Positions 11,793 to 58,245 of a DNA stretch of 64,000 bases are shown here, in pieces. A program made the position numbers and the translations under genes. Each line of letters opens with the position of its first letter. Position 1 is the stretch's first letter. A model generated the notes under the pieces. It had not been told where the DNA came from, did not search any database, and saw only the letters and a program-made list of their open reading frames with translations. The DNA comes from a virus, in IMG/VR virus record IMGVR_UViG_3300029374_000001, positions 1 to 64,000 of that record, one strand, 5' to 3'.

Positions 11793-12278
11793 TTATTTTA
11801 CTTCCTTAAAAACAACCTTATTCACGTCATTACTAAATTGAATGCGAAGAGCTTTATCTTTATGGCCACCTCTTTTCTTTTTACTCTCCTTTCTAATTTC
11901 AAAACTGGGATCATTCCACATACAATAGTAATAATTTTCAATCTTACGTATAAATACGAAAATCTCATTAATAGCATCGATAGTAAATTTTAAAGATCGA
12001 TCATTATCGGCCAACATATCAGCGTCTGCTATAAGATACCCCATTGGCGTTTTGATTTTATCCATCGTTTCGACAAATACTCTACTATGAATATATTTAC
12101 TATTACATAGTATCGATAGCTGATATAAATAAGATTTGATTTCTTTACAATTTCGATATACTCTTACATATTTTATTGGATTGATCATTATATAAGACAG
12201 TTTCTTGTTAATATTATTCATATGAGAATTAAAATATTTTCTAAAACTTTTATTAATTTTTACAATATTTGATTTCAT
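11793..12278 (-). CDS. hypothetical protein
   Basis: 161-aa ORF. Confidence 0.45.
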   Translation of the reverse strand: MKSNIVKINKSFRKYFNSHMNNINKKLSYIMINPIKYVRVYRNCKEIKSYLYQLSILCNSKYIHSRVFVETMDKIKTPMGYLIADADMLADNDRSLKFTIDAINEIFVFIRKIENYYYCMWNDPSFEIRKESKKKRGGHKDKALRIQFSNDVNKVVFKEVK

Positions 12279-12303
12279 AATATCTACTCCTTTTAAGTAT
12301 ACC

Positions 12304-12322
12304 CTCTGGTATCATAGAAAAT
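12304..12322 (-). promoter_or_regulatory. conserved 19-mer CTCTGGTATCATAGAAAAT (gene sense TTTTCTATGATACCAGAG), about 37 nt upstream of the ATG of 11793..12278. Candidate phage-RNAP promoter.
   Basis: Identical 19-mer at 28264..28282 in the same position relative to a start codon. Variants at 17571..17590, 29296..29310, 33892..33913 and 40288..40310. Confidence 0.4.
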
Positions 12323-12387
12323 ATATCAACAAATTTACTTCATCTTTATAATATATAATTTTAAAATATTTAGATTACAAAAGATAC

Positions 12388-15552: not shown

Positions 15553-17538
15553 TTATACAAGTCTCCTTTTAAACTTAATATCCAATTCATTCTTTTGTTC
15601 TTCTGACAAATTAGAGTGATCCAAAACAACCATACCATCAATACCATAATTTGTTTCATCAATTCTCATAGCATTGGTCAATGGTTTTTGATTATTGGTA
15701 TTATATTGTGGATCATAAGGTAAGATTTCATTCTTAACTGGATAGAATGGAATCTCTATAGTATTGAAATATTCTAAGATATCTCCATACATCTCTTTGA
15801 AATTAGCCAAATGAAACCATCTATGCATACATTCCAATGGATTGTCTGAAGTCAAATCTTCTATGAATTGACCAGATCTGGTATACATTGGGTTATTGAT
15901 TGCATTTTCGTTTTCATAAATTGTACTTGGAATCTGAATATATCCAATCAATGTATTCGGAGCCATATTATATTCTTGCTGAATAGATGGATACAGTCTT
16001 GTAAAGTCAAAATCAACTGCATTGGATGCTCTCATAATAGGTCTACCATTGATATTATCTTTAATAGAGTCTGCCACCTTAGTTGGTTCTGCTACAAAAG
16101 CTCCTTCATAGGATTTGACATTGCTATGGTCTTTGTACTTGTTGTTATTATTTCCCAATACAAAGTCTCCAAAACCTTTAAACATAATAGAGGCTCGATT
16201 GGTTAAATAGACTGTCTGTCTATGAACTTTTCTATACTGTGTTCCATTTAATAATGCTTTATTAAAGATATACGGAATATCTTCAGATTTGAACTCTATA
16301 CAATACTGTACGATAACGTCCATCATATTATATTTAACAAACGTTCGATAATCGTTATAAGGTAAGTCTTGGATATTGACCGCAATATCATGATAATCCA
16401 ATTTTCTGACACCAGCTACTTCATCTCCTATAGAATCCAAACTATACGATCTGAATTTAGCTCTGCCTTTACGTCTGGAAGCAAACTGAATCAATTGGTC
16501 TAAATATACTGAATAGGAAGTAATGTCTGCATAATCTCCCTTTTCAGCAAATTCCGTAGCAACAGCTCTTTGATCGATATTATAGTTACAACGCTTATAT
16601 TTTGCTGGAATATTCTGAGGACAAATGATTTCTTTTGGATCCACTCCCAGTCTTTTAATTCTATCAATAATAAATGGAATATCGAATGCCATGTTCCATG
16701 CCAAGACAAAATCCGGTTGTTCATGATTAATATATCCAAATAAATCATTCAGCATAACCAATTCATCATCATACATTAGGACTCTTGTTTTCAGATTCTG
16801 TAATTGGTAATACTCAACCTTATCTTGCCCACCCAAAGTATCGGTTAAAAGCTTCATAAATTCTTGATTAAACGAATCGTTATCAAACGAGTCTATAAAT
16901 GGTTGAATCAATGGATTAATATCTGATTGATTCAATAAGAATGTGGTTAATTCTTTTTTATCATGATCCAAATAAGATACTGCATTGATTGGACAGTTGC
17001 CATCTGTTGGAAATGGTGTATCCGATAACTTATTATCAACTTCGATATCCAGATAAGCTCTTGTAATAGGAGTCTCCGTGTTCTTATATTGCTCAGCAAA
17101 TCTCATTCTATAGAAATCTGTAATAGGAATATCAGATTCAAATACTCTTGTGTTTTGCTGGAAATATGCATTGGTCGCTCTGCGGTCTATTTTAATCTGC
17201 TTATTATAATAATCCAATTCTCCTATCGATTGTGCAATAGATTTAGTTAAGCTATTATATTTACATATCACTTGTTTTAGATGATCTTTAGTTTCAAAGA
17301 ACTTTCTATAGCTCGGGGTTTCTACTTCATCTTTTAACACATAATAAAAATATTCGGGTTCTTCGATAAAGGTAATTCCTTTTTGCTTGGTTATATTGTC
17401 TTTATATAAAATCGTCATAAAATCTTTGGAGTAAGATCCTGTCTCTTCATCTCGTCTTCCATATCTATATACAGTATCCATAACAACTAAATCAGAGCCT
17501 AATGGATACTTTGGAATTAATTTAGGAAAATTTGACAT
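15553..17538 (-). CDS. family-B DNA polymerase, part 1 (3'-5' exonuclease domain plus palm motif A)
   Basis: Exo I AYLDIEVD. Exo II LAWNMAFDIPFIIDRI. Exo III YNMMDVIVQY. YEGAFVAEP corresponds to YxGGxVxEP. Motif A is AVDFDFTRLYPSIQQ. The protein ends about 130 aa after motif A. Motifs B and C are absent here and found in 34749..37352. Confidence 0.85.
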   Translation of the reverse strand: MSNFPKLIPKYPLGSDLVVMDTVYRYGRRDEETGSYSKDFMTILYKDNITKQKGITFIEEPEYFYYVLKDEVETPSYRKFFETKDHLKQVICKYNSLTKSIAQSIGELDYYNKQIKIDRRATNAYFQQNTRVFESDIPITDFYRMRFAEQYKNTETPITRAYLDIEVDNKLSDTPFPTDGNCPINAVSYLDHDKKELTTFLLNQSDINPLIQPFIDSFDNDSFNQEFMKLLTDTLGGQDKVEYYQLQNLKTRVLMYDDELVMLNDLFGYINHEQPDFVLAWNMAFDIPFIIDRIKRLGVDPKEIICPQNIPAKYKRCNYNIDQRAVATEFAEKGDYADITSYSVYLDQLIQFASRRKGRAKFRSYSLDSIGDEVAGVRKLDYHDIAVNIQDLPYNDYRTFVKYNMMDVIVQYCIEFKSEDIPYIFNKALLNGTQYRKVHRQTVYLTNRASIMFKGFGDFVLGNNNNKYKDHSNVKSYEGAFVAEPTKVADSIKDNINGRPIMRASNAVDFDFTRLYPSIQQEYNMAPNTLIGYIQIPSTIYENENAINNPMYTRSGQFIEDLTSDNPLECMHRWFHLANFKEMYGDILEYFNTIEIPFYPVKNEILPYDPQYNTNNQKPLTNAMRIDETNYGIDGMVVLDHSNLSEEQKNELDIKFKRRLV

Positions 17539-22059: not shown

Positions 22060-22123
22060 TTAACCACCTCTTCCTGTATAAATATCTCTATACTCAGAAT
22101 TATAATATATAATTATAAAAAAT

Positions 22124-22149
22124 AAAAGAGACTCATATGAGTCTCTTTT
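22124..22149 (-). terminator. AAAAGAGACTCatatGAGTCTCTTTT
   Basis: A-run, 9-bp stem, T-run. Downstream of the adhesin gene. Confidence 0.6.
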
Positions 22150-22161
22150 ATTTATGATGCA

Positions 22162-24252
22162 TTAAGCATTTACTCTTACACGTTCAATGGTTGGTGTACC
22201 ATTTTTGTTCTGAGAAATCACATCAATACGGAAACGAGCAATTTCTGGTTCGAATTCGTTTAGCATTCTTTCCGGAACTTCATATCCCATCTGAAGAGCT
22301 CTATAGATAATAGCGCCGAATTCATAACGAGTCATAACTCTATCTCCCTTGAATTCTCCATCAAGATAGCCTTTGATAATATCGTTGCCTGCCAGCGTAG
22401 CAATATATTCATAGGCCCAATGATTTTTCGGAACATCTGGGAAGATTTTGATCTTGCCTGTATCGATAGCATCTCCAATAACCAACTGTTTGATAACGCT
22501 TCTAAGATTTTCTACTTCAGCACGAAGATCTTTAATCTCTTTTGCCATAGCAATCTTAGAACCATTGACGTGGTTTCCTCCACCAATCTTAAGACTTACG
22601 CCCGCATTGATTGCATTTTCTCCACCACCGAAAGAAGCTCCCAAAGAAACCATGGTATCCTCGTTCGGACGATAGAATGCACCAAGCGCTGTTGCATTAG
22701 CATTCTTATAATGACCATATCCTACAGCAATATCCAACTTGCTGTCTGGATCAAAGTCTAACGGATGAAGAGCTGCCAAAGCGGCTGCATTCGCACCAAC
22801 CTTATTAATACGTCTATCCAGTTTACCCATCCGACCATTAATATTCGTAATATTATTGCGAACGTCATGGATATCCTGATGGATATTATGAATATCGTTG
22901 TTGATATTGGTGATACTGTCTTTGTTCTGCTTAATAGCAGCATCCAATTTCTGATCTGCTTCTACCAAACTTGTAGAACCTTTGATATAGGTTGTAGAAG
23001 AATACTGACTGGATAAATTGGTAGGATCTGTAGCTCCTATCGTATTGGTGATATTCAAATCTGCAGCTTTACGAGCATCCTGTTCTTTCTTCAGATCAGA
23101 AGCTTTAGCTACATCTTTGATTACCACATCACCAAGCTTAGTACCAGAGTAGTTATCTTTAACTTCCAGAGTTACCTTGTTATCAGTAGAGATATCATAT
23201 TCTCCAGGCTGCACAGAGTTGTCTTTCATCTTACCTTTAAGATTGACTTTGGAGCCATCTTTCTTTTGCAAAGTAATGGTACCATCATCATTGATTGATC
23301 CATCAACAATGTTGTTACCATGAACAACTTCTGCTAAAGACCTAAGCTGCGCTACATTGACAGCATCATCAGAACTTGTGCCAGCGGCTACATTAACGAT
23401 CTGACGCTTATAGCGATCATTACCTATGCTGACTGCTCCGGATGTGGACTCCCATACTGACCATCCGGAATGTTTTGGATTAATACTCATGGTTGCAGGA
23501 TCCCAACCGAGAACACCTTTATCAATATTGGCTTTTGATTCTTTGCCCAATGCAATACCACCTTTAACATTAGTGGTTGAGAACTTGCCAATTGCTATAG
23601 CATCGTCAGCATATGTTTCTCCACCGATACCAATTACATAATCTCCTCTAACAGTCCATGCATTAATACCAACAGAATATTTCCCATAAACATTGGTGGT
23701 AGTACTGCCAATTCCTAATGAATCGCCACCATATACTCGAGTTTCTCCACCGATGGCAGTACTACCACCTGCAAGCGCCATTGCCTGTGTACCGATAGCT
23801 ACAGCATGATACCCATGTGCTTTTGCCAAATTACCAAACGCAACAGCATCCTGACCAATGGCTTCGGCATTAACACCCATTGCAACGGCTTCGCCATCAC
23901 CATGACTCTTAGCTGTACATCCAGAACCCACAGCAACAGAAATCCAATTTCTGCTGTTGTCTTCATTGGTACCATCAACTTCATTATGGTTGCCTATAGC
24001 AATAGCGTCAAAACCTTTAACTTTGTTGTACACACCTACAGACAGTCCCATAGATGCATTTTCCATTTCCGATTCTCTTCCGATCATAGTACTCCATTCG
24101 GAATTTTTCATTTTGAGTTTATTCCCAATAACAGTATATTCGGTACTACTTGTGACAGTATTATTAGCACCTTTCTCAATATTTACTGCATACGTTACTG
24201 ATGTTACGCATAATGCGCACATCGTAGTTAATAAAATCTTTTTGTTTCTCAT
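22162..24252 (-). CDS. trimeric autotransporter adhesin (YadA-like head, neck and beta-barrel anchor) with a C-terminal SLH domain. Negativicutes-type architecture.
   Basis: Signal peptide MRNKKILLTTMCALCVTSVTYA with AAGGAGA upstream (the ORF-track Met at 24285 is probably too early). Head repeats AVAIGTQAMALAGGSTAIGGET. Neck DAVNVAQL. Anchor AALAALHPLDFDP...GYGHYKNANATALGAFYRPNEDTMVSLGASFG. The C-terminal FPDVPKNHWAYEYIATLAGNDIIKGYLDGEFKGDRVMTRYEFGAIIYRAL is an SLH consensus. Confidence 0.8.
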   Translation of the reverse strand: MRNKKILLTTMCALCVTSVTYAVNIEKGANNTVTSSTEYTVIGNKLKMKNSEWSTMIGRESEMENASMGLSVGVYNKVKGFDAIAIGNHNEVDGTNEDNSRNWISVAVGSGCTAKSHGDGEAVAMGVNAEAIGQDAVAFGNLAKAHGYHAVAIGTQAMALAGGSTAIGGETRVYGGDSLGIGSTTTNVYGKYSVGINAWTVRGDYVIGIGGETYADDAIAIGKFSTTNVKGGIALGKESKANIDKGVLGWDPATMSINPKHSGWSVWESTSGAVSIGNDRYKRQIVNVAAGTSSDDAVNVAQLRSLAEVVHGNNIVDGSINDDGTITLQKKDGSKVNLKGKMKDNSVQPGEYDISTDNKVTLEVKDNYSGTKLGDVVIKDVAKASDLKKEQDARKAADLNITNTIGATDPTNLSSQYSSTTYIKGSTSLVEADQKLDAAIKQNKDSITNINNDIHNIHQDIHDVRNNITNINGRMGKLDRRINKVGANAAALAALHPLDFDPDSKLDIAVGYGHYKNANATALGAFYRPNEDTMVSLGASFGGGENAINAGVSLKIGGGNHVNGSKIAMAKEIKDLRAEVENLRSVIKQLVIGDAIDTGKIKIFPDVPKNHWAYEYIATLAGNDIIKGYLDGEFKGDRVMTRYEFGAIIYRALQMGYEVPERMLNEFEPEIARFRIDVISQNKNGTPTIERVRVNA

Positions 24253-24352
24253 TCTAATCTCTCCTTTTAAAAATAACGAATACATATATTATATATGCTG
24301 GCACTTATATAATATATAATTTCAGAAAAAATAGATTGCAAAAAAAAAATAA

Positions 24353-24382
24353 TATCTGGAGATGCTATATAGCATCTCCAGA
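24353..24382 (-). terminator. ATCTGGAGATGCtatataGCATCTCCAGAT followed in minus sense by T10
   Basis: 12-bp stem plus T-run downstream of the topoisomerase gene. Confidence 0.6.
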
Positions 24383-24386
24383 TTCA

Positions 24387-26789
24387 TTATGCTCGTATAA
24401 TAGAAACAGAAGCTACACCAGACGAATCTGTTATCTTTTCTCCCTGAGAAATAGAAGATCCATTGGGAATTTGGATAATCGGATATACTTTAGAATTTCT
24501 ATGTGTAGTAATAGCCAAAGAATCCGTTTCATTACATACTCCAATATATTTAATAGAGTCCGTCTTACTCAATTTAATGATAACGTCTCCTGCTCTGGCT
24601 CTGGTTCCTCTATTGATAGAATCTAAACCAATCTTATTAACTCTTCCAGATTCTGTAACTACAATCACATGTGTTGAGTTAGGAATAATACAACACATCC
24701 CATCAATAGCATACTTGGAAGATTTCATTCCAATAACCCCTTTGGTGGTTCTGGATAATAAAGGAATATCGGAAGCCCATATCCGCAATACTTTGTTATG
24801 AGCATAAATCAGAATCTCATTAGCAGATCCTGCCACTAACAAATCTGCAATCGTATCTCCTTCATTCAGCTTCGCATACATCAAACCAGATAATGGAATA
24901 TTAAATAGCTCAGAGATATTCATTCTCTTTGCTAATCCTTGTCTGGTAATAGTGATAATACTACCTTCCATATTCTCTGCTTTATAAGACCGATCAATGG
25001 TATCCAGCATAGACTCTGGAATAACAGCAGATATACCTTCTCCAGAATATTTCTTAACAGCAATACGCATATCAATTCCATTAGAGTTCTTAGCGGCAAA
25101 TGGAATCTTATGTACAGGAATCTTGTATACTTTGGCTAAAGAACCAAACAGTAACAAAGAATCTGTATTGTTTGCTGTCAATACAAATCTAGCCTTATCA
25201 TTTCGTAAGCTTAATGATTTATCGGATACATCAATCTTCTTAATAAACCCAGATTCTGTAATAACAACTTTAAATATTCCTTCTGGAATTCCTTCTGCTT
25301 CAGATGCAGAAACAATTCTGCTTCTTCTTGGACAACCATATTTCTTATTAATAGCAATCAGTTCTTCTTTGATAATACCGGTTAACTTTTCCGGATGAAT
25401 ACTCCAATCCAAATATTGTCTGGCTTTAGCATCTAAGTCATTATATTCTGTAATATAATCATTCAGATATCCTACAGATAATTTCTTCAGATTGATATTC
25501 AGAATAAACTTAGCTTGTAATGGAGTAATATCTTTTACTGTCTTCAGCATAAAGTTAATTAACTCTTCATCATCTCTGGTTTTCTGTTTACGTATCTTAT
25601 CAATAATCTGATCAATCTTACCAGACTTTAAGATCTTGATGTAGAAATCCAATTCATGCATACGAGTCTTACACTCTTTTAACTTGGCATTAAACATTCT
25701 GGCTTTACGTTCAATACGGAAGTTAATAAAGTTCTGTAAGTATTGTTTATAACTCCAAATAACCGGATTGTTATTATACACAACTTCAAAGTTTACAGAT
25801 TTGGTCGCTTCCAATCGAGTATGCTTATACAGAATATCTCTAACATAATGAGGATCTGTATCTTTCTTCAATACAATATAAACTTCAAAGTTAGACTTCA
25901 TTGCTTTCTTATGAAGATCTGTAGTGGTATTATTATAGATATCGATAACCTGTGGAAGAATATTCTTTTCTTTCAGATCTTCTATCTTATTCTTGATATC
26001 TTCAAAATATACCATATGAGGCAACGCTTTAACAATCAGAGCTGGTTTATTCTGGAATTCCCCAATATCAATTTTAGCTCTAACTTTAAATCGTCCTTTA
26101 CCGGTTCTGGATATTGTTGCAAAATCTGCTTCAATAATATCACAACCCTGAGGATCATCTGGTAATAAAATGATCTCATCATTGGGATGATCAATCAGAT
26201 GAATGGTTGCATCAATAACTTCTGATATATTATGAGGAGGAATGTTTGATGTCATTCCTACCGCAATACCAAAACTACCGTTGATTAAAAGATTCGGAAC
26301 TTTAGATGGAAAGTATAATGGTTCCATGACTGTGTTATCATAATTCCAGTCCCAATCTGTAGAAGAATATGTTTCTGTCATATCCCCAATAATACATTCT
26401 ACAGCATAAGGGGTTAATGCTGCTTCTGTATAACGAGAAGCAGCTGCGCTATCCCCCCAAATATTACCAAAAGATCCTTTTGGTTTAATTAATGGCATAT
26501 AAGATTCAAACCAGTTGGTCATACCTTTCATTGCTCCGTAAATACCGGAATCAGAATGTGGATGAAATCTCTGCATAACGATTCCGACTATAGATGCCGA
26601 TTTAACGGTTGTACCCGTTCTGGTTTGTTTCAAATATTCATACATAGTATATAAAATTTTTCTTACTACTGGCTTTAATCCATCTACCGCATGTGGAATC
26701 GCTCGTTCTCTACATACGGCTTCTGCATAGGTTTTCAAATCTTGATTAGCTTGTGTGACTATGTTTTCATCAATTATTCTTTCAGCCAA
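24387..26789 (-). CDS. type II topoisomerase A subunit (GyrA/ParC-like)
   Basis: AIPHAVDGLKPVVRKILYTM (GyrA has DGLKPVHRRVLYAM). HPHSDSGIYGAMKGM. Active-site ASRYTEAAL. PNLLINGSFGIAVGMTSNIPPHN. Confidence 0.9.
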   Translation of the reverse strand: MAERIIDENIVTQANQDLKTYAEAVCRERAIPHAVDGLKPVVRKILYTMYEYLKQTRTGTTVKSASIVGIVMQRFHPHSDSGIYGAMKGMTNWFESYMPLIKPKGSFGNIWGDSAAASRYTEAALTPYAVECIIGDMTETYSSTDWDWNYDNTVMEPLYFPSKVPNLLINGSFGIAVGMTSNIPPHNISEVIDATIHLIDHPNDEIILLPDDPQGCDIIEADFATISRTGKGRFKVRAKIDIGEFQNKPALIVKALPHMVYFEDIKNKIEDLKEKNILPQVIDIYNNTTTDLHKKAMKSNFEVYIVLKKDTDPHYVRDILYKHTRLEATKSVNFEVVYNNNPVIWSYKQYLQNFINFRIERKARMFNAKLKECKTRMHELDFYIKILKSGKIDQIIDKIRKQKTRDDEELINFMLKTVKDITPLQAKFILNINLKKLSVGYLNDYITEYNDLDAKARQYLDWSIHPEKLTGIIKEELIAINKKYGCPRRSRIVSASEAEGIPEGIFKVVITESGFIKKIDVSDKSLSLRNDKARFVLTANNTDSLLLFGSLAKVYKIPVHKIPFAAKNSNGIDMRIAVKKYSGEGISAVIPESMLDTIDRSYKAENMEGSIITITRQGLAKRMNISELFNIPLSGLMYAKLNEGDTIADLLVAGSANEILIYAHNKVLRIWASDIPLLSRTTKGVIGMKSSKYAIDGMCCIIPNSTHVIVVTESGRVNKIGLDSINRGTRARAGDVIIKLSKTDSIKYIGVCNETDSLAITTHRNSKVYPIIQIPNGSSISQGEKITDSSGVASVSIIRA

Positions 26790-26850
26790 TTTAAAATCCT
26801 CCTTTTATTTTTACTCATGTCTATAATATATACTTGAGTATTAAATTGGC

Positions 26851-27865: not shown

Positions 27866-28234
27866 TCACTTCTCTCTGGAATTAACTCTACAGAAATTCT
27901 TAAATGTTCGTATCTTTATAAAGATATTATCAACTTCACAACCAAACTCACATATATTCTCTCTTATAATTCTATCATAAAAGAGATCCTTTATGGACTT
28001 ATCTATAAAATCCATAGATTCGCATATAGTATCTAATGATACACATGCGTCATTAGTTTTACATTCATGAATAGTATATAATGCCAGTTTTATTTGACGA
28101 TATATACTCTGAAAATTCTTTCTGTCTTTGAACAATTTGTGTTCAAAGATATGCTCCAAACTGGAGTGTGTACTATCCATAAATACAGATAGTACCTCTT
28201 CATTTTTCTTAAAATCAAAATCAATAACTCTCAT
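27866..28234 (-). CDS. hypothetical protein
   Basis: 122-aa ORF. Confidence 0.45.
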   Translation of the reverse strand: MRVIDFDFKKNEEVLSVFMDSTHSSLEHIFEHKLFKDRKNFQSIYRQIKLALYTIHECKTNDACVSLDTICESMDFIDKSIKDLFYDRIIRENICEFGCEVDNIFIKIRTFKNFCRVNSREK

Positions 28235-28263
28235 AATATAATCCCCCTTTTGACTACTATAAT

Positions 28264-28282
28264 CTCTGGTATCATAGAAAAT
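28264..28282 (-). promoter_or_regulatory. second identical copy of the 19-mer CTCTGGTATCATAGAAAAT, about 37 nt upstream of the ATG of 27866..28234
   Basis: Identical to 12304..12322. The same intergenic region also has the terminator-like hairpin CCAGAGCattataGCTCTGG (28359..28378) followed by a T-run in gene sense. Confidence 0.4.
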
Positions 28283-28385
28283 TTGATACCATTGTATCTC
28301 TTCATCTCTATATTATATAATTTATAAAAGATTAGATTACAAAAAAGAAAATCCAGAGCATTATAGCTCTGGATTACACAATATA

Positions 28386-28852: not shown

Positions 28853-29212
28853 TTATACTTCTACACCAAAATCAGTATACAATACAATCTTAATAAATGC
28901 TTTAGCCACATCGTTTAGCATTCTGAATTGTTTCATATATACATACTGATCTTCTCCATTATATGATACGAGAGAATCACATACAAAACGAACTCCTCCA
29001 TATCTCTCTATATCTTCTTTAGACAATGTTTTTAAGTCGTCTATTTCTAATACCATATCCGGATTAGACTCTAAATCTTTCAGCATATTAGTGAAAGTTT
29101 CTTTTTCCATTTCATTTGTATTATCTTTGGCTAAGTCTTCATTATTTTCATCAATAACCAAATACGTTTTTCCATCTTCTTGATATGTGTAAAAATCGTT
29201 TAATTCCAACAT
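28853..29212 (-). CDS. hypothetical acidic protein
   Basis: 119-aa ORF preceded by the duplicated 60-nt leader. Confidence 0.45.
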   Translation of the reverse strand: MLELNDFYTYQEDGKTYLVIDENNEDLAKDNTNEMEKETFTNMLKDLESNPDMVLEIDDLKTLSKEDIERYGGVRFVCDSLVSYNGEDQYVYMKQFRMLNDVAKAFIKIVLYTDFGVEV

Positions 29213-29270
29213 AATATCTTCTCCTTTTTATAAAATATAAATGAACTTCTCATACTTATAATATATAATT
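29211..29270 (-). promoter_or_regulatory. 60-nt leader/promoter module ending AAAAGGAGAAGATATTATG. The same module is present at 50586..50644.
   Basis: 59 of 60 nt identical between the two copies, with one small indel. Confidence 0.5.
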
Positions 29271-29313
29271 GACTGTAAAATTAGAAATTATATTATAGTA
29301 TCATATAAAAAAT

Positions 29314-35179: not shown

Positions 35180-35605
35180 CTAATGCGTTTGGGATAGGCC
35201 TCTTTATAAAGTAATTTATAGAGAGAATCCTGGTGAATTGCTGGAAACCGGTAAAGATCTGATAACTACAATATATTTTTAATATATGAATGTGACGAAA
35301 GTCAGAAACAATATCAGATATAACCTAAGCTGAAATAAAAGAGTAGTATATATGAAATTCTTACTTATTTAAAAGAATATATATATTATTTGCTAAGGGT
35401 ATAATAAGAAAATCCGCAATCAGCAGCGAAGCTTCTATATATTATAGAAGAACGTTCAACGACTATTATGTAGAGTACAAGCGTATTCGAAGTGCCAGGC
35501 TCCAATATAATATTGGATGAAGATATAGTCTGTCCATGTATGAGAGTACATGAAGTTCATAAGAGAACTGGGTAGATGTAGCGAATCTATTCGAACACAT
35601 GAGAT
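35180..35605 (+). ncRNA. group I self-splicing intron with no ORF. Boundaries are accurate to only a few nucleotides.
   Basis: Core elements readable in the sequence: P-like GAATTGCTGGAAACCGG, Q-like AATCCGCAATCAGCAGC, R-like GTTCAACGACTAT, S-like GAAGATATAGTCTGTCC (consensus AAGAUAUAGUCC). A P1-type hairpin AACGCATTctAATGCGTT spans the exon1/intron junction. Splicing restores KVDVNA(F/I)YGAMGQ, matching T4 KIKINSLYGALGN. Confidence 0.8.
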
Positions 35606-37352
35606 CTACGGCGCTATGGGGCAACCATCTTCTATATTTTATAACTTTGAAGTGGCAGCTTCCATTACCAGACAAGGAAGAGCTTCTATTGCAGCATCTA
35701 TTATGCTCTTTGAGTCTTTCTTAGCTAACAATATTAAATTTGGATCTTTGAACGAAGTGATTATGTTCATTGATCATATTGTATTAATGAAACCAACTAG
35801 ACAATATGAAGACCATCGAATCTTAGATAGAGATGTCTCTATCCAAGAAGTCTTTGATAAACTAATGAGTTCTTGTGGATATCGATGGAAACCAGATCAT
35901 ACAGAAGCCAATATTATCTGGAAAATTTTACATCAATTATCCCAATTTCATTTAAACAGACTCTATTATAAAAATAATATCTATGCTTTCTTTAATAATA
36001 CCGCACCCAAAGACTTCTTATTGGAGTTATTATATTCTTTGGATTCTCCATTTATCGATCCCAATTCTCCACCACCAATGATTAAGGCTAATTTGGATGT
36101 ATTGGTAGATATGGTCAAAGAGTATATTTATTATCCATATCAGATCATCGATAAAATAGAACGAGTAGAAACATTGTATCGTCAAATCGATTTAGTAACC
36201 GATACAGATTCTTGTATTATTTGTTTAAATCCATGGTATGAATATGTAGCCAATCTAACCAAAGATCTGGATATCGATCTGAAACATTATGAATTGGATA
36301 TAATTGGATTGTTGAATAAAGAAAATCCCAATGATGCATCTGATTTGAAAGAAGAAAGTAAAACAGAATATATCTACGATTTTAGAAATAAAGAAATTTT
36401 GGAAAGAAAACGATTAGTAGATCCATTTAAAATTATTCCAGAAGACGCTATGAGATATAGCATCATCAATATACTGGCATATATCATTAGTAAGCTATTA
36501 CGAGATTACTTCGATCGTATAAGCATTAAGAATAATGTAACTAATGATGCTCATAATTTTTGTTTGATGAATATGAAGAACGAATTCTTATTCTTACGGA
36601 TGTTATTGTCCGATGCTAAGAAGCATTATGCGTCTATTGTAGAACTTCAGGAAGGTCATAAAGTTCCCTTAGATAAGCAATTAGATATTAAAGGATTACA
36701 GATTGATAAGTCTGTTGTACCAGAATCTACTAAAGAAGCTCTTGGAAATATTTTACATGAAGATGTATTACGACCAAATTATATTGATCAAATGAAGATC
36801 ATCAATAAATTGGCTGTTCTGGAAAAGACCATCTATGATGATATCTATAATGGCGGATTGAAATACTATAGTCCTAAAAAGCTTAAACCATTTGTTACAT
36901 ATAAGAATCCAATGAGTACACAGCAGGTTAAAGCTTCTATTGTTTATAACTTATTTAGAGATGAAGATGAGGCATATATCAATATTGATGAAAATAATTC
37001 TGTATTGATTATTGGAGTTAATATTGATGCTCATTCATTAGAATCTTGTAAACTAAAAGAATCGGATCCTGAGAAATATGAAATCATGAGAAAGATTATT
37101 TATGAGAATCCAGTAATTGAAGTTTCTCAGAATAAAATTGCTGTGAAGATATTCAATGATAATCTAGCTCTAAATAGTCGAAAAATTACTAGTATAGCTA
37201 TTCCTAGAGATAGTCAAACACCTAAATGGATACTAGAGTTTATTGATTATGCCAGCATAGTTAAAGATAATATCGGTACCTTCCCATTGAAGAGTATTGG
37301 TATTACTAAGCTAGATACGAACAGTGCGTACAGTGGCATTATCAATCTATAA
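35606..37352 (+). CDS. family-B DNA polymerase part 2, exon 2 (motif B second half, motif C, KKxY, thumb)
   Basis: YGAMGQPSSIFYNFEVAASITRQGR resembles T4 [25 protein letters not shown]. Motif C is YRQIDLVTDTDSCI. AKKHYASIV corresponds to KKRY. The ORF-track start at 35550 is an internal Met within intron and exon sequence. Confidence 0.8.
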
Positions 37353-38410: not shown

Positions 38411-38604
38411 AGTTTAATATACCTCCTATAATATGATGATTATTATGATGTATAAAAAAAAAGAATAATCAAATAATCCATAATATTTTATTAAAAAAGA
38501 ATATTTATTGTTAAAATGGAATCTATCTTTTTTTCAATTATATATTATATAGGTGTAATAACCATAATAAATTTACATTTATTTTTAAAAGGAGGATAAT
38601 TATT

Positions 38605-42177: not shown

Positions 42178-43446
42178 TTAGTTCTTAGCCATAGCTGCCT
42201 TATTTACATCCTGAGCCAGATCAAACATCTTTTCTTCTTCTCTTCCAACATTCAGGGAATCCTGAGAATTAAACGAGCCAGAAGGTTCATCTACATTCTT
42301 ATCCATTCCTTTCAGGAATCCTTTAGAACGTTCAGTTTCTGCATTGATATCAGAGCCTTCAAAATCATTAAACATTTCTACATCGTCCAGATCATCAGTA
42401 CCCATAGCATCAAACAGATCTTCTACCGCTCCATCAGAAGACATATCTTTACCTTTAACGTCTTCATTGGATACTTCCACACTATCTTCCAGTTCTTCAA
42501 AAGTTTCTTCCAAGCTGGCATTCAAATCTTCATCTTCAAACATATTTAAGTCTCCTTCTTCATGGGATTCAATTATTCCGGGTCTAGTTCCATCTGTTAA
42601 AGGAACAACAGGCCCTGCAGGCTCATTAGCCGGTGCATTGCTGCTGGTCAGATCGACCGTAGTATGTTTTTCTGGTGTATTATCAAACATATCGGGTTCT
42701 ACATCATCCAGATCAGTATCATCGTCGATGTCATCTTCAATATCGATATTGGGAGGAAGAACGGCATCATCATTATGATCTAAGCTGGCACCCTGTTTAG
42801 GATCAGCATCAGTCAAAATAGACCCAGGCACGTTATCTGTACCGGTATCATTATCTTCTGTCGGATTCATTTTAAATATAGGAGCATCCGATTTTACACC
42901 ATCATCTCCTAAGATTTCTCCATCCGTATCTACATCTTTGTCTACCAATTCTGTAGTATGGGGAGCTGTATGAGGAACATGAGCATCTCCACATTCACAA
43001 GGAGCATGATGACAGAATTCACATACTTTACCAGTATTTTCATCATTCAAAGAAAACGGAATATCTCCTACATCTTCATTAATTACTTTATCTACGTAAT
43101 CATAAATAGAAGCCCCTTCTTTGAGATCTTTAATATCATCTTTAGTTACAAGAGCATTGGCACTAACATCCTGCTCCAATTCTTGAATCTCTTTATCCTG
43201 TTCTGCTTCTCTGGCATCTACATCTACTGGGTCATAATCTCCCGGTTCTTTGCCAGCATCAATATCTTCAATATCTTTATCAGAAATCAGAACGTTATCT
43301 GTAATTCCAATAACAGCATCAAGAGCCTGATCATCTACTTCAGTAGAAGCTTCAAAGTCTACATCAGCATCTTCTTCGGCTGATTTATCTAAGACTACAT
43401 CGATAGCATCTTGTGCAGCTTCCATAATAGAATCAAAATCTACCAT
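42178..43446 (-). CDS. highly acidic Asp/Glu-rich protein (422 aa) with a Cys/His cluster CEFCHHAPCECGDAHVPH. Scaffold or internal-protein-like.
   Basis: ORF. Composition is extremely acidic. Confidence 0.5.
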   Translation of the reverse strand: MVDFDSIMEAAQDAIDVVLDKSAEEDADVDFEASTEVDDQALDAVIGITDNVLISDKDIEDIDAGKEPGDYDPVDVDAREAEQDKEIQELEQDVSANALVTKDDIKDLKEGASIYDYVDKVINEDVGDIPFSLNDENTGKVCEFCHHAPCECGDAHVPHTAPHTTELVDKDVDTDGEILGDDGVKSDAPIFKMNPTEDNDTGTDNVPGSILTDADPKQGASLDHNDDAVLPPNIDIEDDIDDDTDLDDVEPDMFDNTPEKHTTVDLTSSNAPANEPAGPVVPLTDGTRPGIIESHEEGDLNMFEDEDLNASLEETFEELEDSVEVSNEDVKGKDMSSDGAVEDLFDAMGTDDLDDVEMFNDFEGSDINAETERSKGFLKGMDKNVDEPSGSFNSQDSLNVGREEEKMFDLAQDVNKAAMAKN

Positions 43447-50095: not shown

Positions 50096-50587
50096 TTATA
50101 TTTTATTACGTTGTATATTTTCACTCAAATTTCGTAATCTGGCATGTATTAATTCAGAATTCATATTCGATCTTACTGATTTCTGAAATATAATATAAAT
50201 TTCTCTCATAGTAGATGGGAAATCGTCTTCAAAAATATACCCATATTCGTTCATTCGATCTGCATAATAATCTAGTATTTTATCCTTATACATATCATAC
50301 AATTTAGCATATTTCAATATTGCAAATAAGACTCCTATACTAATAATAAATTTATCATACTTATTCATAGTATAATCAAAAGAATAACCGTCATCGCTTA
50401 GTTCTATCGATTCTATAGTATCCATAAACGATTGAATGGTCTCAACATGATCTAACGGTTTTTTATTATCTACTAAATCCAATAAAAAATCCATTTTATG
50501 AACAATAAGATCACCAGTAATGGTCAAGATCGAACGTTTTAATACATAATATCTATACTTCTCGTTAATTAACCACAATAATTTCAT
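50096..50587 (-). CDS. hypothetical protein, preceded by the second copy of the 60-nt leader (50586..50644)
   Basis: 163-aa ORF. Confidence 0.45.
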   Translation of the reverse strand: MKLLWLINEKYRYYVLKRSILTITGDLIVHKMDFLLDLVDNKKPLDHVETIQSFMDTIESIELSDDGYSFDYTMNKYDKFIISIGVLFAILKYAKLYDMYKDKILDYYADRMNEYGYIFEDDFPSTMREIYIIFQKSVRSNMNSELIHARLRNLSENIQRNKI

Positions 50588-50670
50588 AATATCTTCTCCT
50601 TTTGTAAAATATAAATGAACTTCTCATACTTATAATATATAATTAAAAAAAAATAAAAGTCAATAGAATA

Positions 50671-55407: not shown

Positions 55408-58245
55408 TTACTTCGTTTCAATCGTGATATAATCTAAATAATATCCTGGTTTAGGATCTATAGAAACGGTCAATTCTTTATTTCTCATTGTCTGATACTT
55501 AGTAGGAGAAATCTTAACATCATACCCATACAACGTAGATATTGCTCCTTCTACTTGAGACATCTCTACTGTACAAATATCAGCAGAAGCAGCTCCTGCA
55601 TCAATTGTAATATTTTCATTTAATTCTGTAATTGCATTGCCAACGATAGAATGTTTAACTCCATCTGCTCCAGTATAGTACAGTTTACCAGGAATATATC
55701 CAAGATCTCCTATTAGCAATACTTTCAGAGATCTCTTATATCCGACAGTAAATTCAATCTTACCATCCTTATTTGTTCTGGTAATGCCTTCTGTAACTAC
55801 TTTGATATATTGATGTACTGTGGGAAGTACAGTAACTTTATATCGTACTGTTTCGTTCAATGAAGCATAGATAATAATATCATGAGATACATCTATTTCT
55901 GTAATATTCAAAGTACCCTTATTAAATCCAGGTTTAACTTCTGTAATCTCTGCTTTAATATGAGGATATCTAGATGTAACGATAAATGAGTCTTCATGAT
56001 CTTCAACGATTCCATTGGCTTTATAATGATGAACCACAATCTTCTGGGTATCAGAATGAGCAATATTGACAGTATATTCTGCATAGGTTGCAGGAGTAGC
56101 GGTAATATATAAAATAGATCCAACAACTGCTTTAGATATATTCGGAGTTCCAGGGAAATGTGCATATGTTAATCCAGGTTTTGTAACCACTCTGACTTTT
56201 ATCAATGCATTTTCTGGAGCATCAAAAGAATCTTCATATGCTTTTCCATTCATATAGACAATAATCTTTTGATTAGTATACTTAGCAATATTAACTCTAT
56301 ACTTCTTAACTCCTTCAAATCTAGAAGCAATAGAATTCTCTTTATGCTCTGGAATATATCCATTATAATCTCTGGAGATTGTATCTAACATTCGAGGAAT
56401 AAAGTCTGTATTGATATCGTAGTAATGAGGAAATTTATCTTCAATGATATTATCAGAATCAATCAGTCTATTCATACCTTCGGGAATCTTCAGCATTGTA
56501 TTGATTCTAAGATCAGCAAATAGATAAGAGTTAACCATCTTTTCTGACTTAATAAGAACTTCTGCATCCCAATCTTTACAATACAGACGTCTCTTATCTA
56601 CATTATAGAAGTCCCACAGTGTTGTATATCCTTTAGGAGGTTTAAAGCTAAACGTTGTTTCTCCAAAGTTAAATTTACCAGCAGCTCTGCCAGTAAACGC
56701 ACCTTCATCATGAATAAAGAAATACGCATATTCTGTTCTACCATCTATTGATTTATTTACATCGACTGTAAATGGATTTCTGGGAGTAGATTTTGTAGGA
56801 AATTTTAATTTAGTAAAGTCTATTCCATCAATAATAACTTTCATTATATTATTGGCTAAGTCTAAGCATACGCCAATAACACTTCCCTGTTCAGGAGATA
56901 CAGAAGTTTCTATGTCTTCTAATACAAATAAATTATTAGCATTAGAATTCTGTAAGCCATCATTAATAATATGATACTGGAAATATCCAGCAGAATCTAA
57001 TAATCCGGTTTGAATAAATGGAGTTCCTCTATACAAATTCATTCGTATAGATTCTGTCATAATCGTTCCAGGATTAATCGCATTCATATATGTCGGAGAT
57101 ACAGCAGGATCTCTGGGTATAGAAGTAATACCCATAGACATCGGAATGCCTACTGTCTTTGGTTTTAATTGAGATTCTTTGACTGTATATTCAAAATAAA
57201 TCTTTTCTGTCTTAGGAATAGGATAATTGATATAAATATTAGATCCTACTAAATGAGAATTTGTATCTCCATAATCTGTAGTAGCTACAATACCCTCAGA
57301 AGCAGGCATCTTATATAACGTCTTATTGATAATATCTACTGTAGTAGAATCAGACACCAAAGAAATATTCTTGGCGATAGGATCTAATTCATTTTCTACA
57401 TGTACATCAGCATCTATATCTTTAGATAATAATTCAAAATTATCTCCAGTTATTGTTACCGTACATGGTTCATCCTTTGTGCCTATTTCTACAGGATCCA
57501 TTTCATGAGTAGCATACTTAGCATAATAAGCAGAATATAAAGATGTATACCCAGGAACAGGATGCTTTAATCCTGTCTCTCCAAAGTTACAATATCCTTT
57601 GATATGCTTTCTACCTTCTATGAACTCTATTCCAGATCTAAAGTTATTATCATCCGTAATTTGTTTGTAATAAATATCACTCCATATACAGAACCGCAAT
57701 CCTGTTTCTGTTTTCATATTAAACGGAGGATGGAATGAATAAAATGGCTTATTATAAGCAGGTTTTTCTGAGTCTGTAGTATAATTGACAAAGAATGTAA
57801 TCGTATTAGTTTTCAGATTTACTCCTACACCAATCGTGTCCATAATACCAGGTTTTCTACAGCCTACTTTTTCTTGTCCATCAGCATCTGTATAACTTCC
57901 ATCTATATATTGATGATATTCTACAGGAGCCCCATCATGATTAGACATGATGTCATACTTCGGATTCGATATATCATAATAAATTGACCCAACTGAGAAA
58001 GTTCCAGCTAATATTCCTGTAGAGATCTGTTTGCTTACACCTACATAAAGAGGAATATGCCTAAAATCGGCTATAGGATAATAATCCTGCACAGTGAACT
58101 CAAACATAGTCTTGTCTTTGATGGGTATATTACAAATCAGAAAGAATGGTTTATCCGAATCAAACTTGAGTCTGTCTCTGGATAACACATCATCATCTGC
58201 TACATAGCTGTTTATATCGTATGCACTCATATAAACACTCTTCAC
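55408..58245 (-). CDS. large structural protein (945 aa), possibly tail fibre or baseplate
   Basis: Long ORF in the structural block. No enzymatic motif recognised. Confidence 0.45.
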   Translation of the reverse strand: MKSVYMSAYDINSYVADDDVLSRDRLKFDSDKPFFLICNIPIKDKTMFEFTVQDYYPIADFRHIPLYVGVSKQISTGILAGTFSVGSIYYDISNPKYDIMSNHDGAPVEYHQYIDGSYTDADGQEKVGCRKPGIMDTIGVGVNLKTNTITFFVNYTTDSEKPAYNKPFYSFHPPFNMKTETGLRFCIWSDIYYKQITDDNNFRSGIEFIEGRKHIKGYCNFGETGLKHPVPGYTSLYSAYYAKYATHEMDPVEIGTKDEPCTVTITGDNFELLSKDIDADVHVENELDPIAKNISLVSDSTTVDIINKTLYKMPASEGIVATTDYGDTNSHLVGSNIYINYPIPKTEKIYFEYTVKESQLKPKTVGIPMSMGITSIPRDPAVSPTYMNAINPGTIMTESIRMNLYRGTPFIQTGLLDSAGYFQYHIINDGLQNSNANNLFVLEDIETSVSPEQGSVIGVCLDLANNIMKVIIDGIDFTKLKFPTKSTPRNPFTVDVNKSIDGRTEYAYFFIHDEGAFTGRAAGKFNFGETTFSFKPPKGYTTLWDFYNVDKRRLYCKDWDAEVLIKSEKMVNSYLFADLRINTMLKIPEGMNRLIDSDNIIEDKFPHYYDINTDFIPRMLDTISRDYNGYIPEHKENSIASRFEGVKKYRVNIAKYTNQKIIVYMNGKAYEDSFDAPENALIKVRVVTKPGLTYAHFPGTPNISKAVVGSILYITATPATYAEYTVNIAHSDTQKIVVHHYKANGIVEDHEDSFIVTSRYPHIKAEITEVKPGFNKGTLNITEIDVSHDIIIYASLNETVRYKVTVLPTVHQYIKVVTEGITRTNKDGKIEFTVGYKRSLKVLLIGDLGYIPGKLYYTGADGVKHSIVGNAITELNENITIDAGAASADICTVEMSQVEGAISTLYGYDVKISPTKYQTMRNKELTVSIDPKPGYYLDYITIETK

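Follow-up and report, generated by a model that had tools for sequence, protein, structure and literature searches.

In Veillonella, the trimeric autotransporter adhesins (TAAs) VtaA, VtaE and VtaF act in aggregation, coaggregation and attachment to surfaces, and VtaG, a 576-aa protein of the SLH type, promotes biofilm (PMC7549365; bioRxiv 10.64898/2026.01.22.700529). According to the same two sources, the periplasmic domains shield these TAAs from degradation, the SLH domain keeps VtaG out of the septum through its WAY and TRYE motifs, and the order of anchor followed by SLH has among TAAs been reported for Negativicutes only. Here we describe a gene of this type that is carried by a phage. 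It lies at positions 22162-24252 of a 64,000-nt stretch of DNA (positions 1-64,000 of the IMG/VR record IMGVR_UViG_3300029374_000001, hereafter called the window), to which contigs of up to approximately 260 kb are related. Judged by its sequence, the encoded 696-aa protein is a further member of the known Negativicutes TAA-SLH family and does not represent a new protein type. What is new is its carrier and its context, while the protein family and the idea of phage-encoded surface proteins were already known. In the literature retrieved, phage-borne TAAs are mentioned neither for Negativicutes nor for jumbo phages.

We consider it probable that the protein is a functional type Vc TAA of an approximately 260 kb jumbo phage encoding a multisubunit RNA polymerase (msRNAP), and that the infected cell displays it to change its adhesion. 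The molecular part of this reading, that the phage expresses a functional outer-membrane TAA, appears highly likely from the sequence comparisons given below. Adhesion or aggregation as the purpose is, once the molecular part is accepted, a tentative proposal, favoured because the characterised relatives act in this way.

Gene and domain architecture

The gene and the parts of its product are as follows. Residues are numbered in the 696-aa protein, and Pfam positions given further on use the numbering of a 707-aa open reading frame (ORF).

22162..24252, minus strand: complete coding sequence (CDS) of the 696-aa adhesin, including the stop codon TAA at 22162-22164
24259..24266, minus strand: Shine-Dalgarno sequence AAGGAGAG, with GGAG at 24261-24264, 8 nt before the ATG
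24187..24252, minus strand: predicted Sec-type signal peptide, residues 1-22, MRNKKILLTTMCALCVTSVTYA followed by VN after the cleavage site, read directly from the sequence
23398..24180, minus strand: YadA-like head of left-handed beta-roll repeats, residues ~25-285 (Pfam YadA_head; PDB 1p9h, 3wp8), the variable and reassorted module
23314..23403, minus strand: neck (YadA_stalk) with DAVNVAQL, residues 284-313 (Pfam and motif reading)
22753..23313, minus strand: stalk, residues 314-500, with a beta-rich insert at ~314-395 and then a long coiled coil at ~430-495 (predicted secondary structure)
22585..22752, minus strand: YadA-type membrane anchor, residues 501-556 (Pfam YadA_anchor; PDB 2lme, 9gh4)
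22444..22584, minus strand: short periplasmic coiled-coil linker, residues 557-603, with a predicted helix at 566-591
22318..22443, minus strand: SLH domain, residues 604-645 (Pfam SLH; WAY at 612, TRYE at 641; fold match to OmpM1)
22165..22317, minus strand: conserved C-terminal tail after the SLH domain, residues 646-696, predicted to form helices and a beta-hairpin

The 707-aa ORF in the ORF list spans 22162..24285 on the minus strand. Its true start is Met12, at 24252, from which the CDS encodes 696 aa. This start was chosen because of the placement of the Shine-Dalgarno sequence, the public gene calls and the alignment of related loci. Inspection of the upstream sequence showed no Shine-Dalgarno sequence before the Met at 24285, the public protein P0001 (696 aa, 99% identical) begins at the same Met as 24252, and this ATG is aligned across the related loci. 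The span given in the original prediction is exactly the CDS with its stop codon. The gene is also complete, with signal peptide, head, neck, stalk, anchor, coiled coil and SLH domain in the order that had been proposed.

All four Pfam families exceeded their curated cut-offs, so the prediction does not founder on missing family matches. YadA_head was found in three stretches (36.7 bits, cut-off 25), YadA_stalk at 295-324 (31.7 bits, cut-off 28.4), YadA_anchor at 512-565 (42.8 bits, cut-off 22.7) and SLH at 615-656 (41.6 bits, cut-off 20.8). Weak matches of the coiled-coil type were seen in the stalk at 437-500. The NCBIfam models of TAAs (YadA, BimA, EmaA, Ata) matched partially, as expected for a divergent family member, and among the PHROGs the family phrog_8062, which covers stalk plus anchor, was matched with an E value of 3.6e-06. 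Sequence matches in the PDB were the YadA head 1p9h, the Ata head 3wp8 and 2yo0 for the passenger, the YadA anchor 2lme, the anchor plus coiled coil 9gh4, and the Veillonella OmpM SLH domains 8bz2, 8bys and 8bym (phmmer E 2e-07 to 3e-06).

The signal peptide has, as read from the sequence, a basic n-region, a hydrophobic core of 14 residues and a T-Y-A cleavage motif that puts small residues at -3 and -1, with neither a lipobox nor an extended signal peptide region (ESPR). The AYA/TYA cleavage motif is kept in all phage copies. Many of the cellular matches carry the ESPR extension, unlike the window protein with its short classical signal peptide. The neck motif DAVNVAQL stands at residue 296, and the SLH motifs WAY and TRYE at 612 and 641; their W, A, Y and R, Y, E residues are invariant in an alignment of 45 homologues. 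The C-terminal tail aligns with cellular homologues through residues 694-695.

An AlphaFold model of residues 431-696 based on a multiple sequence alignment reached a predicted local distance difference test (pLDDT) score of 54 and contained the stalk helix, four beta-strands, the periplasmic helix, the SLH helices and the terminal hairpin. The four strands of the anchor were placed, at low pLDDT, at 506-513, 520-528, 532-543 and 546-556. The single meaningful fold match of this model in the PDB was the OmpM1 SLH domain 8bz2, with a template modelling score of 0.66-0.68 and 33% identity. A single-sequence AlphaFold run on the full protein gave a pLDDT of 38 and no usable model.

In its predicted features the protein agrees with the Negativicutes TAAs that have a long periplasmic domain on every point that a sequence can speak to. 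It has the domain order of the SLH-type TAAs VtaG and VtaH of Veillonella and other Negativicutes, including the WAY and TRYE motifs that were mutated in VtaG, and is near VtaG in size. It departs from that family in that its carrier is a jumbo phage and not a Negativicutes genome. The SLH domain is homologous to that of Veillonella parvula OmpM (8bz2, 8bys, 8bym) and presumably has the same ligand, polyamine-modified peptidoglycan. In OmpM the SLH domain is N-terminal to the porin barrel, whereas in the window protein it is C-terminal to the TAA anchor. The original prediction also took the SLH domain as a tie between outer membrane and peptidoglycan. This part did not carry over to TAAs, for which the literature gives stability and septum exclusion, no demonstrated tethering, and no measurable gain in envelope anchoring from the SLH domain (bioRxiv 10.64898/2026.01.22.700529).

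Phage carrier

The window was assigned to an msRNAP-encoding jumbo phage because it holds msRNAP beta-like fragments (phrog_3295, phrog_3015), a split family-B DNA polymerase, UvsX, an NAD-dependent ligase, DNA topoisomerase II (topo II) and genes of virion and tail-fibre proteins. Topo II (24387..26789), dUTPase, a helicase, the msRNAP beta fragments, the DNA polymerase and UvsX are neighbours of the adhesin gene. The adhesin gene is thus embedded in a phage replication region, co-oriented with it and flanked by terminators, as the original prediction had described from the same DNA and as both the neighbouring genes and our terminator scan bear out.

The same protein, at 98-99% identity, was found on contigs of 259,177 bp (ENA), 260,656 bp and 215,810 bp (IMG/VR), and in every such contig the gene order is dUTPase, topo II, adhesin and a 394-aa gene. 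A sister lineage, represented by three further assemblies, has the identical order; its core proteins are 85-92% and its adhesin 76% identical to those of the window. The synteny of topo II, adhesin and 394-aa gene is accordingly present in at least eight independent assemblies and two sublineages, and the gene has been inherited vertically with its phage. Misassembly is excluded because the identical synteny recurs in independent assemblies and in the sister lineage. One assembly of the sister lineage is marked as a Human Microbiome Project sample, and nr lists the protein under 'Caudoviricetes sp.'. The approximately 260 kb phage is apparently human-associated.

The gene has a GC content of 0.40, compared with 0.33 in the remainder of the window. 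Codon positions 1 and 2 account for the excess, the protein being rich in Gly and Ala, while the GC content at third codon positions (GC3) is phage-like, at 0.30 against 0.255 ± 0.039 in 36 other ORFs of the window. Recent capture from the host, which the raised GC content might suggest, was therefore rejected. The claim that the gene is phage cargo and no misjoined host fragment holds up on both counts, synteny and GC3, the latter from the codon comparison with neighbouring genes. The sequence evidence indicates an old, ameliorated and mosaic phage gene and not a recent host capture.

A tblastn search of 50,697 GenBank phage records gave no match to the full protein, nor to stalk plus anchor at E ≤ 1, so no isolate phage could be used as a reference. 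Pfam and PHROG scans of the adjacent ORFs of 64, 394, 369 and 308 aa gave no functional clue.

Relatives in a second phage and in a bacterium

Relatives were sought in a database of 5.8 billion proteins. The close ones fall into three contexts, namely the jumbo phage with its two sublineages, an unrelated phage of approximately 145 kb, and a bacterial chromosome.

The backbone of the 145 kb phage includes PolA, an ATP-dependent ligase, dUTPase, three tandem S-adenosylmethionine (SAM) lyase genes and SAM synthetase. One IMG/VR contig of this type (138 kb) comes from the same metagenome as two of the jumbo phage contigs. The TAAs of the 145 kb phage (P0004-P0010) have 597 aa, with a coiled coil of about 45 residues after the anchor and no SLH domain. 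We rejected the idea that these are truncated copies which have lost the SLH domain, as they carry the other recognised periplasmic type of Negativicutes, coiled coil only. They resemble the window protein in being phage-borne, compositionally ameliorated and of the same head allele, and differ in the coiled-coil-only periplasmic domain and in the phage backbone around them. The SLH domain is not essential to the use that phages make of the protein, because these copies lack it.

The closest cellular relative is P0002, a full-length chromosomal orthologue in a Dialister-related bacterium, with 77% identity. The P0002 cluster (P0002/P0175; 1,659 member sequences) matches the window within the CDS only, and its members are found on a 1,777,284-bp contig and others. 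At this locus, an ABC transporter, inosine monophosphate dehydrogenase (IMPDH) and one or two OmpM-like SLH proteins lie on one side, and IS110 lies on the other side in some strains. The IMPDH of this bacterium is 89% identical to that of Dialister micraerophilus, its best named match, and its cluster at 99% has 2,302 members. The view that the passenger is exclusive to phages was rejected once the P0002 cluster proved to be chromosomal. The Dialister-related TAA has the same full-length architecture as the window protein and differs from it in head allele, locus, GC3 and the frameshift of a common allele.

Among the GTDB species representatives, an anchor plus SLH domain was found in Dialister, Megasphaera, Veillonella, Negativicoccus, Colibacter, Anaeroglobus, Acidaminococcus and Mitsuokella, all of them Negativicutes, the exception being a few short contigs binned into other taxa, which we take to be misbinned. 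Compared with these Veillonellaceae and other representatives, the window anchor is ~70% and the linker plus SLH domain 60-73% identical, but head identity does not exceed 34% and for the stalk there is hardly any match. In a search with the passenger only, identity fell beyond the three contexts to 29-45%, mainly with heads of Pasteurellaceae.

Because the cellular relatives are Negativicutes and the closest orthologue sits in a Dialister-related bacterium, the comparison points to a Dialister-like member of the Veillonellaceae as the host of the jumbo phage. The combination of TAA and SLH domain had been proposed as a mark of diderm Firmicutes, in agreement with these relatives and with the literature. 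As a clue to host range it holds for the Negativicutes; Veillonella, the genus named first, gives way to a Dialister-related bacterium as the best candidate.

In the 145 kb phage, the three S-adenosylmethionine-lyase paralogues stand in tandem and are followed by the SAM synthetase gene (L006, 19085-21794). This unusual combination may be tied to anti-restriction or to the control of methyl metabolism.

Mosaic heads, selection and direction of transfer

Domain by domain, the identities among these proteins are mosaic. The window protein's head has 77-94% identity with its counterparts in the 145 kb phage, and 49-72% with those of P0002 and of P0003, the syntenic orthologue. For coiled coil, anchor and SLH domain the identity is 84-97% with P0003 and 76-90% with P0002; for P0002 the values by domain are 90% in the anchor, 86% in the SLH domain, 89% in neck plus stalk and 59-72% in the head. 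Against the copies of the 145 kb phage, the neck is 83-85% and the anchor 61-64% identical. The protein P0011 has a P0003-type head joined to a C-terminus of the 145 kb type. At least three head alleles and two translocator types thus occur in several combinations, and heads have been reassorted between the phages.

Every domain of the adhesin is under purifying selection. Between the two jumbo phage lineages, the ratio of nonsynonymous to synonymous substitution rates (dN/dS, Nei-Gojobori) was 0.02-0.26 in each domain, and the same method gave 0.06 for topo II and 0.03 for the neighbouring 394-aa gene. For the head allele that the window has in common with the 145 kb phage, dS was 1.27 and dN/dS 0.07, from which it follows that the sharing of this head is old and that the head is constrained in both phages.

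In both phages the GC3 of the gene is close to that of its genome (gene 0.30 and genome 0.26 for the jumbo phage; 0.23 for both in the 145 kb phage). The chromosomal copy has a GC3 of 0.32-0.35, against 0.53-0.61 (~0.58) in housekeeping neighbours and 0.44-0.51 in OmpM-like genes. As a control, GC3 was compared in seven native Negativicutes TAA genes, five of which match their flanks. Because the other two also mismatch, the compositional argument is suggestive and not conclusive. The sequences are suggestive of long residence in phages, with the chromosomal copy acquired from a low-GC source such as these phages.

A similar offset was seen in TAA genes of Dialister sp. i34-0019-2H8 (L015, 5001-7718) and of a Veillonella sp. 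metagenome-assembled genome (L034, 5001-7916), with GC3 of 0.36-0.37 against 0.50-0.57 in the flanks. These two cases hint that Negativicutes may often acquire TAA genes horizontally from low-GC sources.

A common allele of the chromosomal gene has a single-base T insertion that breaks it into 169 + 548 aa and recurs in 20 contigs from different assemblers. The split allele is found at L086, 9553-11647, and also in L087-L089, and intact copies are present in L084 and L090. In L086, an IS110 transposase follows the split orthologue, which is directly adjoined by one or two OmpM-like SLH porin genes. The frameshift could reflect phase variation, or loss under pressure from phages or immunity. 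Upstream of the intact chromosomal TAA in L084, at ~550-600, there is a 21-nt tandem duplication (TTTTGAGAATCCTTTGTTCTA x2). L086 and L090 have one copy of this stretch, and the difference may be a regulatory polymorphism.

Expression signals

Signals around the gene indicate that it is a stand-alone transcription unit. The following sites were located.

24354..24383, minus strand: intrinsic-terminator-like hairpin with a 13-bp stem and a T-run, ending the topo II unit just upstream of the adhesin gene
24332..24342, minus strand: putative upstream promoter element, TTTGCAATCTA, separated from the AT-rich motif by 12 nt
24308..24319, minus strand: AT-rich promoter-like motif TTATATATTATA, ending 55 nt upstream of the start codon; candidate early promoter of the virion RNA polymerase
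22120..22153, minus strand: intrinsic-terminator-like hairpin with a 15-bp stem, starting 9 nt past the adhesin stop codon
12347-12358, 22101-22112, 24308-24319, 26822-26833, 29257-29268 and 50631-50642, minus strand, and 38538-38549, plus strand: examples of TTATATATTATA sites

Terminator-like sites in the region numbered 4, with 1.4 ± 1.3 expected. Sigma-70-like sites showed no enrichment (14, with 13.1 expected), so host-type promoters are unsupported. The 12-nt motif TTATATATTATA, with at most one mismatch, had 23 sites in the window against 7.0 ± 2.8 expected. All sites except one are intergenic (22/23), and 13 of the 23 lie 16-81 nt upstream of a same-strand start that is preceded by a Shine-Dalgarno sequence. 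Placed in register, the sites show a T-rich tract, aaTTATATATTATA, 3-4 nt and then TGA. Copies are also present ahead of topo II, of the 64-aa gene that follows the adhesin and of several small genes, and one lies ~160 nt upstream of the 703-aa RNA polymerase beta-like gene, where the script assigned no downstream start. None of the recognisable structural genes in the window is preceded by the motif. The element TTTGYAATCTA had 4 sites against 0.3 expected, and at three promoters, that of the adhesin included, it precedes the AT-rich motif by ~12 nt. In the sister jumbo phage, the AT-rich motif and its flanking sequence are retained ahead of the adhesin gene; the 145 kb phage lacks them, and no phage motif was found upstream of the chromosomal copy. 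In this respect the window protein, whose jumbo phage gene follows a promoter motif specific to the phage, is unlike the Negativicutes TAAs.

According to a review of such phages, the early promoters, which the virion RNA polymerase reads, are marked by a conserved AT-rich motif of ~10 nt that lies near -10 of the transcription start and is bioinformatically detectable upstream of early operons, while middle and late promoters escape this kind of search (PMC7598289). Because our motif fits this description, the adhesin is probably an early gene transcribed from a virion RNA polymerase promoter. By the same analogy, TTATATATTATA is probably the early-promoter consensus of this msRNAP jumbo phage.

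Two promoter-plus-leader regions on the minus strand, 29212-29280 and 50587-50655, are near-identical over ~55 nt (TTATATATTATAAGTATGAGAAGTTCATTTATATTTTA[T/C]AAAAGGAGAAGATATTATG). They precede genes of 119 aa and 163 aa. Either a regulatory cassette has been duplicated here, or the two genes are early genes and paralogues of each other. The leaders 12278-12358 and 28234-28320 have TTCTATGATACCAGAG in common.

Proposed role and alternatives

We propose the following course of events. On infection of a Dialister-like diderm Firmicute, the gene would be transcribed from the AT-rich phage promoter, probably of the early class and read by the virion RNA polymerase. The protein would be translated and exported by means of its classical Sec signal peptide. 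Three four-strand anchor segments, together with the beta-barrel assembly machinery of the host, would then form a 12-strand barrel, through which the passenger of head, neck and stalk would pass to the outside of the cell. Left in the periplasm, the C-terminal coiled coil and SLH domain would stabilise the protein and, by analogy with Veillonella VtaG and OmpM, may dock on polyamine-modified peptidoglycan. The infected cell would in this way show an adhesin fibre chosen by the phage, which would alter what the cell sticks to. Aggregation or retention in a biofilm could hold susceptible neighbours near when progeny are released.

Several observations weigh against this reading. The adhesin's own copy of the promoter motif is followed by TGC and not by the usual TGA, and the promoter class was assigned solely by analogy with published early promoters. 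The AlphaFold models are of the monomer, with a pLDDT below 50 in the anchor of the predicted trimeric barrel. The copies of the 145 kb phage, as said, do without the SLH domain. Cellular heads other than that of the Dialister-like orthologue are at most 45% identical and give no lead on the head ligand, and the host assignment rests on one gene family.

The same outer-membrane TAA could instead serve exclusion, by shielding or occupying a phage receptor. In a variant of this idea, the phage TAA would co-trimerise with the host orthologue, which is ~90% identical in neck and anchor, and so inactivate the host protein. Superinfection would be blocked, and progeny would not be lost on cell debris. 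Llp of T5 and the Cor proteins are precedents for exclusion by phages. An early-type promoter is typical of exclusion genes, and the presence of at least three divergent head alleles, reassorted among two co-occurring unrelated phages and the host chromosome, is typical of arms-race loci. The host orthologue is commonly frameshifted and adjoins IS110, which is consistent with selection against its display, and identities of 89% in neck plus stalk and 90% in the anchor would permit mixed trimers. Against this, a fibre tens of nm long is an odd means of masking an outer-membrane receptor in cis, the strong constraint on the head within an allele (dN/dS 0.07) suggests a conserved ligand rather than bulk, and frameshifts and allelic variation are ordinary for bacterial adhesins under immune pressure. 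We find exclusion or receptor masking unlikely as an explanation of the locus. If the molecular model is taken as right, it comes next after adhesion and is somewhat less doubtful.

A further extension of the adhesin model appears quite improbable to us. According to it, the large lytic phages of Dialister-like hosts keep, reassort and export a pool of adhesin heads, the host copy being derived from phage in view of its phage-like GC3 (0.32-0.35 against 0.58 for its genome), and mixed trimers of phage and host protein may form. If true, jumbo phages would be a source and not recipients of bacterial surface adhesins, and mixed trimers would rewire or poison the host adhesin or receptor, a form of dominant-negative superinfection exclusion that has not been described.

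The adhesin might also belong to a temperate element and be expressed from the resident phage or prophage to the benefit of the lysogen, as in lysogenic conversion. The Eib immunoglobulin-binding TAAs of E. coli, which Sandt and Hill reportedly described in 2000/2001, are carried on lambdoid prophages. They too are complete phage-encoded TAAs displayed on the outer membrane of the host. They differ in being proteins of Proteobacteria and of temperate lambdoid prophages that act in lysogenic conversion, with the anchor at the extreme C-terminus and no periplasmic domain. The match to phrog_8062, which spans stalk plus anchor, and the stand-alone, 'moron-like' layout of promoter, gene and terminator would fit such a role. 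The carrier, on the other hand, shows the typical features of msRNAP jumbo phages, and those of them that have been characterised are lytic; the upstream signal is a phage-wide motif, with no good sigma-70 promoter; and the long contigs show no bacterial flanks. No integrase or repressor was found among the scanned ORFs of the window, which cover 64 of ~260 kb and leave room for a temperate lifestyle, a further point against our proposal. Lysogenic conversion is in our view very unlikely.

Less probable still is a structural fibre of the virion, for instance in the tail or as a decoration, with head and stalk folds merely borrowed from the YadA type. Phage-encoded structural proteins with YadA-like head and stalk folds are reported for cyanophage S-SZBM1 and phiEco32 (PMC9146016), and the window protein had weak matches to tail and virion families (phrog_17931, E 0.004; phrog_473, E 0.017). 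The phage copies of the window adhesin, however, keep the signal peptide, the four-strand anchor and the periplasmic domain under purifying selection, all of which would be useless in a virion assembled in the cytoplasm. YadA-domain virion proteins are expected to have none of these three. The gene also lies among replication genes with a promoter and terminator of its own, and its promoter motif is common with non-structural genes.

A misjoined host fragment, or a host gene that was captured very recently, is decaying and does nothing for the phage, is scarcely credible: the GC content of 0.40 against 0.33 and the 77% identical chromosomal orthologue would agree with it, but the same junctions occur in at least eight assemblies from different projects and in a sister lineage diverged by 10-15%, the GC excess is confined to codon positions 1 and 2 with a GC3 of 0.30 that is near the phage (0.255 ± 0.039) and not the bacterium (0.58), the phage promoter motif is conserved upstream, and the reading frame is intact everywhere with dN/dS well below 1.

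If the expression of a surface adhesin by this phage is as we propose, surface remodelling would extend beyond lysogenic conversion to a probably lytic msRNAP phage with an apparently early adhesin unit, for which such an investment is unusual. Aggregation and biofilm behaviour in oral, gut or vaginal communities may be affected. The reassortment of heads among two phages and a chromosome, together with the foreign composition of the chromosomal copy, suggests that phages help to generate and spread the adhesin diversity of Negativicutes. A host lineage can also be proposed for the recurrent ~260 kb jumbo phage and for the second, ~145 kb phage, neither of which is related to the 50,697 GenBank phage records, and attempts at isolation and tests of host range thereby gain a definite target. 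With its small size of 696 aa, the protein can be tested in Veillonella parvula, the genetically tractable system of the VtaG study.

Other features of the window

The family-B DNA polymerase of the phage appears to be split into two genes that lie on opposite strands, ~18 kb apart.

15553-17538, minus strand: exonuclease and N-terminal part of DNA polymerase B (phrog_3011)
35550-37352, plus strand: polymerase part of DNA polymerase B (phrog_2927)

The window contains no tRNAs. The ORFs of 945 aa and 1339 aa, at 55408-58245 and 59873-63892, had no family match. A 422-aa ORF at 42178-43446 on the minus strand, with no Pfam or PHROG match, has a very unusual composition by codon position, with a GC content of 0.62 at first codon positions and a GC3 of 0.23.

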